A program made the position numbers and the translations under genes. Below, one piece after another: positions 1,545 through 62,510 of a DNA stretch of 64,000 bases. Source of the DNA: Nannocystis pusilla (GTDB lineage: Bacteria > Myxococcota_A > Polyangia > Nannocystales > Nannocystaceae). The stretch is taken from assembly GCF_049060185.1 (NCBI RefSeq), contig NZ_JBMEQO010000002.1; one strand, written 5' to 3'. The notes under the pieces were generated by a model. That model did not search any database, was not told the DNA's origin, and worked only from the letters and a program-made list of their open reading frames with translations. Position 1 is the first letter of the stretch, and each line of letters starts with the position of its first letter.

Positions 1545-1622
1545 GCCTGCGGGCATGTCCGCACGGACATGCTCGAGGACACATGTCCGGCAGAACATGT
1601 GCCAGTACACCTGTCCGCAAGG
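1545..1622. repeat. REP-like cluster of GCATGTCC/GGACATGC palindromic units between convergent genes
   Basis: gggCATGTCCGcaCGGACATGctcgaggacaCATGTCCggcagaaCATGTGCcagtacaCCTGTCCgc. It contains a perfect 9-bp-arm inverted repeat, GCATGTCCG/CGGACATGC. Confidence 0.6.
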
Positions 1623-2488
1623 TCATGCGTGCGGCGAGCGGTACCAGGCGTCGACGAGCGGACGGATGGCCGCGAGGATGTCGTCGTGGTGCGCGCCGTG
1701 CGAGGCGACCAAACCATTGTCGTGGCCGAGTCGACGCGGGTCGTAGATCAGTGGATGGCCCCACAGATCGGTGATGACGCCGCCGACGGCGCGCAGCAGG
1801 GCCCACGGCGCGCAGGTGTCCCACAGCTTGGTGCCGCTGCGCGGGTGGACATAAAGGTCGGCCTCGCCGCGGGCGATGGTGCCCACCTTTACGCCGACGG
1901 AGCCGAGACGGAGGTTGCGCTCCGGCGGGATGCCGAGGACCTGCATGACCTCGAGGGTCTTCGGGGAGGCGTGACTCAGGCTGCTGACCAGGCGTAGCTC
2001 GGTGAGCGAGCGACCGCTGGCGCGCAGCGGGTGGCCGCGCCGCTGTCGTCGACGACGAACGCCTCGCGCCGATCGGGCGTGCAGATGCCCCACGAGAGGC
2101 GCGCCGCGCCGGCCTCGTAGACGACGCCGAGGACGGGTTCGCCGCCGATGCAGAGGCCGATCTGGATCGCCCAGCAGCTCTCGCCGCGGGCGTACTCGGC
2201 GGTGCCGTCGATCGGGTCGACGTACCAGCAGCGCGAGACGTCGGCGGCTGCGGCAGCGTCGTCGGCGGACTCCTCGGCGACGACCGCGTCGCCAGGGAAG
2301 GCCGCGCGCAGCGCTGCGACCAGGCGCGCGTTGATCTCGGTGTCCGCACGAGTGACCGGGCCGGCGTCGTCAGGCTTGTCCTGGGCCTGCATGACGTCGG
2401 CACCACCTGTCTGATAGGCCAGGGCGATGGCGCCGGCCTCGCGGGCGAGCGAGAGGACGAGTCGGAGCTCGGGGTCGAAAGTGGCCAC
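1623..2488 (-). CDS. inositol monophosphatase family protein (CysQ/SuhB-like 3'(2'),5'-bisphosphate nucleotidase); reading frame broken once in this sequence
   Basis: GTG start at 2488 gives MATFDPELRLVLSLAREAGAIALAY. The WYVDPIDGTAEYARGESCWAIQIGL motif matches IMPase WxVDPIDGT. The C-terminal half (LGSVGVKVGTIARGEADLYVHPRSGTKLWDTCAPWALLRAVGG) sits in a second frame (ORF 1623..2093). The frame switches near 2010-2040. Confidence 0.75.
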
Positions 2489-2756
2489 GCGGGGAACTCT
2501 TTCCGGCGCCCTCGGGCGCTCTCTGAAGGGGTGGCGAGATCTCACCGAGGACGCGGCCGGGACTGGGTCATCAGGGTTCGCCTGATATGTCGTGTAATAT
2601 CGAATAACCTGGCGACAAAACAGCGGAAATCAGCCATCCCCGAGGCTGGCATTTTTCTAGCTGAACGTCATTTTTGGGGTTACGAACCTTGTTCCAAGTT
2701 GCGCCTCCGGCGAAATCCAAGGTTCCGTCAGGCAAAAAACCTGCTAGTCATGAGGA
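2489..2756. promoter_or_regulatory. AT-richer divergent intergenic and promoter region between the phosphatase gene and the TetR gene
   Basis: GC drops locally (…tgtaatatcgaataacctggcgacaaaacagcggaaatc…ttttctagctgaacgtcatttttgggg…). Both flanking genes start here. Confidence 0.4.
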
Positions 2757-3367
2757 ATGTCACGTGTTCAGCGAGCAGGCCTACGACAGGGAATCATCCA
2801 AACCAGCCTCGAGATCGGGAGCGAGCGGGGTGAAGAAGGACTGACGATGCGCGGCATCGCGGCCCGCCTCGGAGTCAGCGCCACGGCGCTCTATCAGCAC
2901 TTCGAGAGTAAATCGAAGATCCTCCGCGAGATCCGGATCTACGGGGCCGAACTGCTGCAGAGCGAGGTATTGGAGCCCGCAGCATCGACCGAGGACCCGG
3001 CCGAGCGCCTCGTCAACGCCGGGCGCAACTATGTGCAATTCGCCAAGTCGCACAAGTGGCTGTACTCGGTGATGATGGGTAACGAGCAGATCGATTGGTC
3101 GCAGCACAACACCGAGGAGGTGGACCTGCTGCTGCGCCCGCTCAAGACGTTCCAGGGCTGGCTGGAGGAGGCGCGGCGCGCGGCTGCTGGCGCGGCGACG
3201 TCGACCTGTCGCTCGCCTCGTTCCGTATCTGGATGTCGCTCCACGGGCTCTGCACGATGCTGCTGTCGGGGCGCATCAGCGAGGCGCATCCGGCGTTCCC
3301 GCGCAAGGACGAGCAGAGCTTCGTCGACGAGTTCATCATCTCGATGATCGCCTGTCTCAAGCCCTGA
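2757..3367 (+). CDS. TetR/AcrR family transcriptional regulator; one frame break
   Basis: The N-terminal HTH reads TMRGIAARLGVSATALYQHFESKSKIL. The C-terminal ligand domain (DVDLSLASFRIWMSLHGLCTMLLSGRISEAHPAFPRKDEQSFVDEFIISMIACLKP) is found in a +1 frame (ORF 3095..3367). The switch lies near 3180-3200. Confidence 0.8.
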
Positions 3368-3436
3368 ACGGGCTAAGCCGGCACGAAGCACGCCCCGATG
3401 CTCTCGAACCCGGGCGCGGGGCTCGGAAACAGCGGT

Positions 3437-4221
3437 TCACAGAGGAGGGCGACGCGCACTGCGCGTCGCCCTCGTTCGTGGCGCAGGTCGAGGTGCAGCA
3501 GCTGGAAGAGCCGCAATTCGGCACCAGCGCCCCTGGCATGCACACGTACGTGGGGCGCAGCCGCGGCCGTTGAACTCCGAGCAATTGGTGCCCTCGGTGC
3601 CCATGTCGATGTCGAGCAGCATCTCGCAGACGAATCGATCGGTGCCCTGGCGGCAGCCGAGGTTGGGCGGACAAATGGCCACGAGAGGATCACAGGTGTC
3701 CGCGCAGTAGGTCGTGCCGCTGAACGGACTGGTGACGCACAGGCCCGGGTCGCAGTCGACGTCGTTGCGGCAGATCGGGAAACACAGGCCGGAGGTCGGA
3801 TCGTCCTGCGTCGGCGAGAGGCACACGGTGCCGGCGCCGCAACCGTCCTGTCCGCTCTCGGGCGCAGGCACGCACGGCTCGAACGGCAAGATCGCGCTGT
3901 CGTCGGGCACGCACTTGAAGTGGTTCTGCAGGCCGCCCTCGCTGACCGCGGTGCACTTCTGTCCTTCGGGACATGCGGGAGTTCCGGACGGTTCACAGTC
4001 GTAGACCGGGACGAGGTCCGGCGGCGGCTCGGGCGCTCCCGTGGTCGGCTGCGTGTCACCCCGCCGTCGGTGTCCGTGTCGCTCTCGTCGTCGCCCTGGT
4101 TGCCGGCGCTGTCGTCGTCGTCGTAGGGAACGCGCTGACATGCCCCGAGGGACAGGAACGCGAGGACAGAGACGAGCCGGGCGGCGGTGACGCCGGGGCC
4201 GCGAAGCTGCGCGTCGAACAT
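3437..4221 (-). CDS. Cys-rich secreted lipoprotein; frame broken at a G-run
   Basis: ATG at 4221 gives MFDAQLRGPGVTAARLVSVLAFLSLGAC, with lipobox LGAC, followed by an Asp-rich linker. After a frame switch at gacggcgggg|tgacacg (4 g where 5 would restore the frame) it continues as PDLVPVYDCEPSGTPACPEGQKCTAV...CRNDVDCDPGLC...CADTCDPLVAICPPNLGCRQG (ORF 3437..4141). This is a multi-Cys extracellular module typical of myxobacterial lipoproteins. Confidence 0.6.
3445..3473. terminator. perfect hairpin (13-14 bp stem) between convergent genes; terminator-like
   Basis: The sequence is GAGGGCGACGCGCA c TGCGCGTCGCCCTC. It overlaps the 3' end of the minus-strand lipoprotein gene and lies 78 nt after the TetR stop. 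Confidence 0.5.
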
Positions 4222-61500: not shown

Positions 61501-61559
61501 GAAGGTCCGCGGGTGCGCCTCAGGTGGCGGGGAGGGCAGAGGAGGCCGCGAAGGTCGGG

Positions 61560-61760
61560 TGAGGCGGGCGGGGGACGAGGTGTCTTGAAGGACAGGTGTG
61601 GCGGAAGGAGCGGGGGCGCGGGTTGAATGACCCGAGAGACAGGTGAGTTCGCAGACTCGAAGGGATAGATGGCTGTCTTATGAGACAGGTGAATTCGGAG
61701 GCGCCCGGGCGAGCTGATGTTGGCTGTCCCGAGGGACAGGTCGAACGTCCGTGGGCTGAG
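61560..61760. repeat. REP-like cluster (GTCTTGAAGGACAGGTG / GAGACAGGTGA / GCTGTCCCGAGGGACAGGTC units)
   Basis: gGTGTCTTGAAGGACAGGTGtgg…gaGAGACAGGTGAgttcg…gGCTGTCTTATGAGACAGGTGAattcgg…gGCTGTCCCGAGGGACAGGTCgaacg. Confidence 0.55.
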
Positions 61761-61906
61761 GCTGCGAGGCCTCGCCTGACCGCGGTCGCCTCCGCGACGG
61801 GCGCGGCTCGTGTGAAAGCGCGCGCGAGTAAACCGCGGCTGCGACGGCGGACGCTCCGGTCGCACGGGTCGTCAGGGCGGCGGCGTCGGGGTACATTCGC
61901 GCGCCC

Positions 61907-62461
61907 ATGACGAGCGCGATGGTCCGCCTGTTCCCGCCCCGTACGCCCGCTGCCGTGCTGATCGCGGGGTGGGGCATGCTCGGGGTGGTCGCGCTGCTGG
62001 CGAGCGCGCTCGTCCGCCTGACGCCGCTGGCGATCGAGCCGCTGACGACCGGGATGACGCCGCTGCAGTGGGCGCTGTACGTCGGCTGGTCGCTGTTCAA
62101 CCTGTACGCCGAGGGCTACAAGGGCTTTCAGAAGGCGTTCGTGCCGCGCGCGGTGGCGCGGGCGTTCTACCTGGCCCGCTACCCGCGGCCGCTGCACGTG
62201 GCGTTGGCGCCGCTGTTCTGCATGGGGCTGTTCCACGCCAACCGCAAGCGGCTCATCCTGTCGTGGGGCCTCGTGATCGGGGTGACCGCGCTCGTCACCC
62301 TGGTCCGCGGCCTGGATCAACCGTGGCGCGGGATCGTCGACGCGGGGGTGGTGCTCGGGCTGTCCTACGGGACAGTCGCGCTGCTGATCGCGTTCTTCGC
62401 GGTGCTGCGCGGGCGGCCGATCACCGTGTCGCCGCAGGTACCGGACGGGGCGCCGCAGTAG
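61907..62461 (+). CDS. hypothetical integral membrane protein (about 4 TM helices)
   Basis: The intact 184-aa ORF has hydrophobic segments AAVLIAGWGMLGVVALLASALV, LQWALYVGWSLFNLY, LHVALAPLFCMGLF, LILSWGLVIGVTALVTLV and VVLGLSYGTVALLIAFFAVL. Confidence 0.6.
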   Translation: MTSAMVRLFPPRTPAAVLIAGWGMLGVVALLASALVRLTPLAIEPLTTGMTPLQWALYVGWSLFNLYAEGYKGFQKAFVPRAVARAFYLARYPRPLHVALAPLFCMGLFHANRKRLILSWGLVIGVTALVTLVRGLDQPWRGIVDAGVVLGLSYGTVALLIAFFAVLRGRPITVSPQVPDGAPQ

Positions 62462-62510
62462 GCTGGCCCTCGGGACAGGCTGTCCGGGAGGCCAGGCGCG
62501 GCGCCGGCCG
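62462..62510. repeat. REP-like unit
   Basis: ggctgGCCCTCGGGACAGGCTGTCCGGGAGGCCagg. Confidence 0.4.

Follow-up and report, generated by a model that had tools for sequence, protein, structure and literature searches.

A genus-specific family of REP/BIME-like palindromes in Nannocystis, arrayed at convergent gene ends

Introduction

Repetitive extragenic palindromic sequences (REPs) occur in hundreds of copies in Escherichia coli, where their hairpins block 3' exonucleases or define stable ends. Myxobacterial genomes are very large and their gene-end signals are poorly understood. Here a family of short palindromic repeats is described from a 64-kb stretch of Nannocystis pusilla DNA (contig NZ_JBMEQO010000002.1, 71% GC throughout). 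The whole of this stretch is referred to as the window. The repeats were compared with REPs, with the bacterial interspersed mosaic elements (BIMEs) and with other families of short genomic repeats.

Two further systems are of interest for the comparison. The DNA uptake sequences (DUS) of Neisseria and the uptake signal sequences (USS) of Pasteurellaceae are asymmetric 9-12-mers recognised by the DNA-uptake machinery, and are found in thousands of copies, also as single sites. The mycobacterial TRIT is a hairpin without a U-tract between convergent genes, present in about a hundred copies and without phased tandem arrays.

REPs lie mainly between convergent and unidirectional open reading frames (ORFs), often in regularly spaced clusters (PMC3733652, PMC2817692). 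The catalogued REP superfamilies carry the tetranucleotide GTAG or CGTC at one end of the stem-loop (PMC3733652). In the systems of REPs and their associated tyrosine transposase (RAYT), including REPINs, the RAYT gene is flanked by two inverted repeat copies, and a master sequence is represented by many identical copies (PMC2817692, PMC3116915). The CGTC-tagged REPs of Di Nocera et al. (2013) are palindromic, have no evident dedicated transposase and are mostly intergenic, with some intragenic copies (PMC3733652).

The Nannocystis family resembles the REPs and BIMEs of Enterobacteriaceae and Pseudomonas in its abundant short palindromes, extragenic location mostly between convergent and co-directional genes, regular clusters, lineage-specific sequence, variable loops, copy number that differs among relatives and occasional intragenic copies. 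It differs from them in a shorter unit (20 bp), which is fully symmetric, tag-less and without Y/Z orientation, and in its 14/28-bp phase, overlapping registers, lack of a high-copy master and much higher density of about 1/kb. The likeness to the CGTC-tagged REPs extends to palindromic sequence and mostly intergenic location, but CGTC was found in only 2.8% of the Nannocystis flanks, which is the chance level. DUS and USS share with the family a specific short sequence, frequent inverted pairs forming terminator-like hairpins downstream of genes and, probably in the case of Nannocystis, upkeep by a sequence-specific process and not by structure alone, whereas in Nannocystis only the paired form with fixed spacing is enriched. 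TRIT is likewise a conserved tail-less hairpin between convergent genes of a high-GC genome, but its sequence is different and it lacks the phased arrays. In the literature searched, no description was found of the motif or of any REP-like family in Nannocystis or other myxobacteria. The repeats are best read as an undescribed REP/BIME-like family, set apart by its density, its symmetric tag-less unit and its 14-bp phasing.

Results

The repeat unit and its abundance

The family unit is the 20-bp palindrome (G/C)(A/C)TGTCC-N4-GGACA(T/G)(G/C). As a single strand it forms a hairpin, in which a 4-nt loop closes a stem of up to 8 bp. These dimensions agree with the description of REPs as short (20-40 bp) imperfect palindromes forming a stem-loop. 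With up to one mismatch allowed, TGTCC-N4-GGACA was matched 32 times in the window, compared to 1.76 expected matches. None of 100 shuffles gave a count that high, and the shuffle maximum was 6. A symmetrised position weight matrix (PWM) was calibrated on approximately 530 kb of high-GC actinobacterial control loci and used with a threshold of at least 10 bits. It returned 74 units in the window, or 1.16/kb. The control density of 0.039/kb was 30-fold lower and would correspond to about 2.5 units in the window. Compositional chance was ruled out as an explanation by the shuffles and the high-GC controls.

The palindrome family had been proposed in an earlier note on this DNA, and all 14 sites listed there were found to hold units. 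Enrichment over shuffled sequence, for which the note proposed a genome-wide count, was borne out in the window by the counts above. The sequence GCATGTCCGCACGGACATGC at 1553-1572 was confirmed as a perfect hairpin. The note had also reported at least five copies of the 10-mer GGACATGTCC, far above chance, and five exact copies were indeed found (17892, 21920, 23677, 47718 and 53045) against 0.03 expected from 100 dinucleotide shuffles. The reported positions at 17.9, 23.7, 47.7 and 53.0 kb were correct; the one at 41.2 kb was wrong, as only ACATGTCC is present at 41248, and the copy at 21.9 kb had been missed. The 10-mer had been taken as the core of the family. This had to be revised, because the unit is the 20-bp palindrome and GGACATGTCC is the junction formed when two units abut in the 14-bp phase. 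Only two of the five copies (17892 and 53045) belong to arrays; the one at 23677 falls inside an ORF or at its 3' end. The published use of GGACATGTCC as a consensus p53 half-site in binding studies was regarded as a coincidence.

Isolated TGTCC/GGACA half-sites were about 1.7-fold more frequent than the Markov expectation and thus barely enriched compared to the paired form with fixed spacing. All 74 units had distinct 20-mers, with 71 distinct 16-nt stems, and there was therefore no master copy. In 430 unit flanks the GTAG tag was not observed once and CGTC was at the chance level given above. No conserved flank was found in the same set, the relative entropy being 0.00-0.20 bits per position, or approximately zero. 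The units were strand-symmetric, and their loops were unbiased relative to the sense of the nearest gene. In the window no match to Rfam 15 at gathering score and no tRNA or tmRNA was found. A census of perfect-stem hairpins was dominated by chance GC-rich hairpins, and no comparable family was seen in the sister genera. Two other candidates were rejected: a CATG-specific restriction-modification system, as CATG overall was neither depleted nor enriched, and CRISPR, as a 14-28 bp period without spacers is an unsuitable geometry.

Array geometry

The spacing of the half-sites was strictly defined. The 32 matches were obtained with the spacer N4, and each other spacer from 0 to 12 nt gave at most four. 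The reverse arrangement, GGACA-N0-TGTCC, was present in 23 copies and the direct arrangement, GGACA-N9-GGACA, in 21. Neighbouring units, arranged head to tail, start 14 or 28 bp apart, and a CATG-to-CATG distance of 14 bp was observed 23 times. In the 14-bp phase an array reads GGACATGTCC-N4 over and over, giving two overlapping hairpin registers. In the 28-bp phase 20-bp units alternate with 8-nt linkers, which are fixed in length and free in sequence. Longer tandem repeats also carry some units; the repeat is about 78 bp long in the case at 52.3 kb and about 47 bp long in that at 61.6 kb. The regular spacing typical of BIMEs is thus present, with 14/28-bp steps and fixed-length linkers; alternating orientation is undefinable with symmetric units.

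Location relative to genes

Coding DNA was mapped by the frame-agnostic GC periodicity at codon positions, and 80% of the window was called coding. This map replaced maps of ORFs because a GC content of 71% gives spurious ORFs and 1-nt indels split genes. The density of units was 3.92/kb in non-coding DNA and 0.47/kb in coding DNA, so that the equal frequency considered in the earlier note as a possible outcome was not what was found. Convergent spacers were occupied in 10 of 13 cases, holding 28 units at 10.2/kb, compared to 7 of 31 co-directional spacers (2.5/kb) and 3 of 15 divergent spacers (1.1/kb). Of the three empty 'convergent' segments, one is a tandem-repeat block, another a (GGC)n tract and the third a dip of 54 bp, and they are probably not true gene ends. 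Of the copies at gene edges, 22 were at 3' ends and 10 at 5' ends, and only nine units lay cleanly inside coding phase. High copy number and a mostly extragenic location between convergent or unidirectional genes, as described for REPs, were seen in the window and in the 15 metagenome contigs described below.

At most convergent ends, the nearest unit lies at most 27 nt from the stop codon or overlaps it. Several units overlap stop codons, and the TGA then comes from the arm variants TGACC/GGTCA. Convergent spacers of 57-110 bp consist almost wholly of units. A convergent spacer of 85 bp is filled by the array at 1553-1628, the last unit of which overlaps the minus-strand gene's stop. The array at 15277-15346 begins 1 nt past a stop codon and fills a 76-bp convergent spacer.

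Well-formed intragenic units were observed at 28830-28863, 21922-21941, 36211-36230, 58206-58225 and 62358-62377. The intragenic density of 0.42-0.47/kb is about 10 times the control rate. CATG at the centre of a unit can give start codons, as seen for the ATG of ORF 16726-17802 and of the SLT-domain ORF 47722-49248. The ATG of the latter, at 47722, lies in the exact GGACATGTCC at 47718. A start ATG inside a unit or inside GGACATGTCC would put the start codon in a hairpin.

Taxonomic range

The methionyl-tRNA synthetase (MetRS) of the window shares 98% identity with its counterpart in N. pusilla Na p29 and 89-96% with those of five other cultured Nannocystis species, which assigns the window to this genus. 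The MetRS scan of reference genomes also returned distant Nannocystaceae and many high-GC actinobacterial loci, which were used as controls. The strict motif was present at 0.45-0.64/kb in the six cultured Nannocystis species. In five of six loci from divergent Nannocystis metagenome-assembled genomes (MAGs), with a MetRS about 70% identical, the density was 0.14-0.37/kb, and in the 4.8-kb locus L006 it was zero. Densities of approximately zero were found in Enhygromyxa, Plesiocystis, most other Nannocystaceae loci, other Myxococcales MAGs and 31 high-GC/actinobacterial controls. The family is restricted to the genus Nannocystis.

A metagenome scan was carried out with the query GCATGTCC-N4-GGACATGC, and 15 Nannocystis-like contigs (GC of at least 0.66, at least three units) were obtained among the 120 listed. 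They held 3.06 units/kb in non-coding DNA compared to 0.42/kb in coding DNA, and 24 of 36 adjacent pairs were separated by the 14-bp step. Extrapolation, as opposed to a count, of 0.5-1.2/kb to a 12-Mb genome gives roughly 6,000-14,000 copies.

Two tandem arrays were observed in the metagenome data. In contig L077 (213-339), a 36-bp tandem array holds four near-identical units of the family, which indicates recent amplification; no other array showed identical copies. A 42-bp tandem repeat with a similar core, GTATGTCCCGCGGGACACAC, in L157 (14362-14549, 57% GC) was rejected as unrelated and probably comes from an unrelated organism.

Evolution of the arrays

A region of 22 kb around MetRS is collinear in the six species, with 85-96% identity, and the blastn alignments break at spacers bearing arrays. 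When flanking anchors were used, arrays were found at the same gene ends in most species, with variable copy number and spacer length. The spacer downstream of MetRS ranges from 84 bp with no units in N. radixulma up to 463 bp, and the number of units from 0 to 3. The array at 53.0 kb gains or loses single 14-bp steps among species. Its units sit in a 16-bp extended stem, the outer arms of which change in a compensatory manner between species, from GGCC to GATC. Where N. punicea and N. radixulma have canonical units, the aligned sequence in the clade of the window holds degenerate remnants. N. pusilla carries an additional block of about 115 bp, in which there are two degenerate units.

Units of the same array were more alike than units of different arrays. 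Outer stems differed at 1.87 positions within arrays compared to 3.03 between arrays, and a value as low was not reached in any of 5000 shuffles. For the loops the numbers were 2.46 and 2.81 (59 of 5000 shuffles). Arrays grow and shrink locally, as judged from this within-array homogeneity together with the change of copy number at fixed gene ends, and they persist at orthologous gene ends.

The core arms of the window diverged from those of its closest relative by 1.0%, compared to 5.4% for other non-coding DNA and 6.2% for the loops, but the comparison of 1.0% with 5.4% overstates the conservation of the arms, as the units were ascertained in the window. When the units were defined in a third genome, the core was below other non-coding DNA in 9 of 11 comparisons. 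The arms are thus modestly constrained or homogenised. In most of the controlled comparisons, the divergence of the loops was two to three times that of other non-coding DNA.

Folding and terminators

Nine of ten array stretches folded better than shuffles, with z-scores from -2.1 to -7.6. A terminator scan gave six sites, against 4.6 and 4.1 expected, and none of them was at an array. Since no T-tract follows the hairpins and no terminator was called at the arrays, the units are not canonical intrinsic terminators. Canonical terminators were not enriched and none was at an array, which leaves the arrays as the main 3'-end structures in the window. The family apparently replaces canonical terminators.

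Two hairpins outside the family were observed. The sole convincing canonical terminator in the scanned stretches lies at 45580-45610 on the minus strand, where TTTT follows a stem of 12 bp, 10 of them GC pairs. A GC-rich hairpin, CGGCGGCCTG...CAGGTCGCCG, is located directly after a stop codon at 45453-45500 and is kept in six Nannocystis species. It is followed by a canonical unit in N. punicea and N. radixulma, and by a degenerate remnant in the clade of the window.

Catalogue of units and other features of the window

Table 1. Arrays and single units of the palindrome family in the window. PWM scores and folding z-scores are given per array where calculated; the strand is '.' for all rows. 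TRF, Tandem Repeats Finder.
Feature	Position	Strand	Details
Array, three strong units and one weak alternate-register unit, 28-bp phase	1553..1628	.	PWM 23.2, 10.9, 23.2, 19.9; TRF period 28; RNA fold z -2.1, -3.1
Two single units, 3957-3976 and 4138-4157	3957..4157	.	PWM 19.1, 18.0; coding status uncertain (ambiguous periodicity flanks)
Largest array, six units, convergent spacer	12882..13040	.	CATG each 14 bp, 7 consecutive steps; fold z -3.0
Array, three units, GGCTGTCC...GGACAGCC subtype	15277..15346	.	TRF period 28; fold z -3.7
Single near-perfect unit, divergent spacer	16710..16729	.	PWM 26.0, window maximum; 3' arm holds ATG of ORF 16726-17802
Array, four units, 110-bp convergent spacer	17815..17913	.	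PWM; exact GGACATGTCC at 17892
Array, three units, 14-bp phase, convergent spacer	23945..23992	.	RNA fold z -7.6
Array, four units, 28- and 14-bp phase, convergent spacer	31961..32036	.	Fold z -5.0
Two units, 17-bp period	40763..40799	.	Begin 8 nt past stop of FHA-domain gene; also carried by orthologous spacers
Two single units upstream of amino-acid permease gene	41248..41395	.	PWM 18.0, 13.4; orthologous copies in loci L010, L005, L001
Two single units, 45985-46004 and 46693-46712	45985..46712	.	PWM 20.3, 14.4; 1.3-kb non-coding stretch; position kept in six species
Three units on ~78-bp tandem repeat	52295..52470	.	Convergent spacer downstream of MetRS
Two units, 14-bp phase	53033..53066	.	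27 nt downstream of stop of minus-strand HTH gene; fold z -4.3
Three units (55449, 55506, 55683)	55449..55702	.	First overlaps TGA stop of upstream gene
Two units, convergent spacer	60205..60287	.	Second 9 nt from stop of minus-strand gene
Four units 46-51 bp apart, co-directional spacer	61578..61741	.	PWM
Two units 17 bp apart	62461..62497	.	Fill 57-bp convergent spacer; first overlaps stop codon
Intragenic unit, radical-SAM domain coding region	21922..21941	.	Includes exact 10-mer GGACATGTCC at 21920
Two intragenic units, 14-bp phase	28830..28863	.	Inside Ser/Thr kinase domain coding region
Intragenic well-formed unit GGCTGTCCTACGGGACAGTC in ORF 61907-62461	62358..62377	.	PWM 18.5; both flanks in coding phase

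The genes of the window include those for MetRS, CarB, a Ser/Thr kinase with AAA_16, FHA and SpoIIE proteins and a FadL-type outer-membrane protein. The amino-acid permease ORF is about 485 aa in relatives (429 aa in L004, at the end of the locus). Two 1-nt deletions, at 41587 and 42192, interrupt it in the window compared to four relatives, in which it is intact. The CarB, radical-SAM and ABC-F genes look split in the same way (6733-9983, 20646-23191 and 57234-59146). The split genes are either assembly indel errors or pseudogenes.

Three repeats outside the palindrome family were observed. Dense unrelated tandem repeats with periods of 23-68 bp and 79-90% matches are found at 4399-5060, in a 927-aa ORF on the minus strand (3373-6156) which had no Pfam match and weak coding periodicity. 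A (GGC)n-rich stretch of about 50 triplets (59879-60072), which probably codes for a Gly/Ala-rich tail, is found close to the 3' end of ORF 59579-60097 and just upstream of an array. The spacer downstream of the large Ser/Thr kinase gene holds, at 25315-25381, 2.9 copies of the 23-bp tandem repeat TGCGGAGCTCACGCCGGTCGGGC with 95% matches.

Discussion

It is considered reasonably probable that the repeats are a genus-specific REP/BIME-like family of palindromes that serve as two-way 3'-end hairpins and are probably read by a sequence-specific factor. The likeness to REPs and BIMEs drawn in the earlier note holds for the short imperfect palindrome, the extragenic location, the 3'-end position and the phased clusters; it does not extend to a tag, a master copy or asymmetry. 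The units would be transcribed into the 3' ends of both converging mRNAs. The arrays could then pause or stop RNA polymerase as two-way end structures or, following factor-dependent termination, they could fix a stable 3' end as a block to 3'-to-5' exonucleases, in the manner of REP hairpins in E. coli. The putative factor, which may be a nuclease, a transposase or a DNA-binding protein, would read the TGTCC/GGACA half-sites and help to generate or maintain the family. A factor of this kind is probable because the arm sequence and the spacing are kept much better than the pairing. The roles in termination or mRNA stabilisation suggested earlier are plausible from the position of the units close to stop codons, but not in the form of canonical intrinsic termination.

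Several points weigh against this reading. The counts for the window all derive from a single region of 64 kb, to part of which the six species loci are orthologous. The gene map is approximate owing to the 1-nt indels that split genes. The metagenome contigs were chosen for one perfect unit, which inflates their density somewhat and leaves the contrast between coding and non-coding DNA unaffected. A T-tract is lacking after the units, with 1.5-1.6 T per 10 nt compared to a background of 1.46. The units had on average 5.43 of 8 Watson-Crick pairs, compared to 5.19 ± 0.11 when arms were shuffled among units, and the covariation of the outer stem was weak, with the first outer pair Watson-Crick in 58 of 102 units against 44 expected. 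The loop composition carried no transcript-sense bias, and since no asymmetry was seen, the loop test did not separate function at the RNA level from function at the DNA level. The controlled constraint on the arms was modest, and only one of 11 non-independent comparisons reached p<0.05. The fast divergence of the loops may reflect real hypermutation, or may in part come from out-of-register alignment within arrays. The proposed roles in transcription, termination and stabilisation are inferred from position.

Across the family, pairing follows for the most part from the match of each arm to the consensus. A purely structural explanation was rejected on account of the weak compensatory signal, and selection for hairpin stability alone is insufficient, because the arm sequence is conserved and the 4-nt loop is fixed.

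The main rival, which is compatible with the 3'-end hairpins favoured here, is a binding lattice at the DNA level. It was judged unlikely. In such a lattice, TGTCC-N4-GGACA and GGACATGTCC would be phased sites for a dimeric, sequence-specific DNA-binding protein marking convergent boundaries, with the hairpins as a by-product of dyad symmetry; candidates would be nucleoid-associated or topology-managing factors, comparable to gyrase at E. coli BIME-2. The geometry suits this proposal, as N4 and N0 are the only enriched spacings and the half-sites are conserved next to loops and 8-nt linkers that are free in sequence and fixed in length. The near-nil compensation in the pairing, the absence of strand asymmetry and of an asymmetric tag, and the slower evolution of the core arms than of adjacent non-coding DNA point in the same direction. 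However, the range of 0 to 3 units downstream of MetRS among close species is unusual for functional sites. Many units are degenerate (3-5 of 8 pairs), isolated half-sites are little enriched, and the 14-bp phase is off the helical repeat.

A more speculative proposal, held to be improbable, is that of a RAYT-free family of about ten thousand phased half-sites. These would form a symmetric lattice, read on the DNA by a Nannocystis-specific protein that marks and insulates essentially every convergent boundary, for example by handling supercoiling or the collision of polymerases. Local duplication together with template switching that corrects the palindromes, and not transposition, would renew the arrays.

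Still more doubtful is the possibility that the units are true REPs or REPINs. As such they would be non-autonomous, and a single-copy RAYT (IS200/IS605-type Y1 transposase) encoded elsewhere in the Nannocystis genome would cut and copy them in the form of single-stranded hairpins. The restriction of the family to one lineage, its vertical inheritance with turnover and the tolerance of published REP consensuses for variable loops would be consistent with such an origin. The distribution and clustering are also as in REPs and BIMEs (PMC2817692, PMC3733652). The expected marks of transposition were, however, missing: no GTAG or CGTC tag or asymmetric flank is present as a cleavage site, the variety of units and stems leaves no master sequence, and the changes between species look like local duplication, deletion and decay and not like clean insertions. 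Neither the Nannocystaceae loci (472 kb) nor the metagenome DNA (717 kb) gave a match to E. coli RayT (PDB 4ER8), but this is weak evidence and says little for a gene that usually occurs about once in a 12-Mb genome, the DNA searched being about 1.2 Mb. A database search with the same protein gave only Enterobacteriaceae among the 120 matches listed.

Ordinary intrinsic terminators, unrelated GC-rich hairpins that only resemble a family, an artefact of composition or a global regulator's operator set, the last of which had been raised in the earlier note, would account for gene 3' ends, stable folding and dyad symmetry of the operator type, but are very improbable in view of shuffles that never reach the counts, the far lower control density, conserved arms with a fixed 4-nt loop and no T-tract, avoidance of the divergent, promoter-bearing spacers (1.1/kb compared to 10.2/kb in convergent ones), and tandem arrays at about 1 unit/kb which differ in copy number between species.

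Significance

In the window, canonical terminators are essentially missing, and one repeat family is found at nearly every convergent boundary. If it is true that the arrays define 3' ends, they would provide a rule for the annotation of operons and terminators in Nannocystis, a producer of natural products, and would serve engineering as a ready-made insulator part acting in both directions. The hypervariable arrays would suit strain typing. The family further poses the question of whether REP-like families can persist without a RAYT, by means of protein recognition or local amplification.

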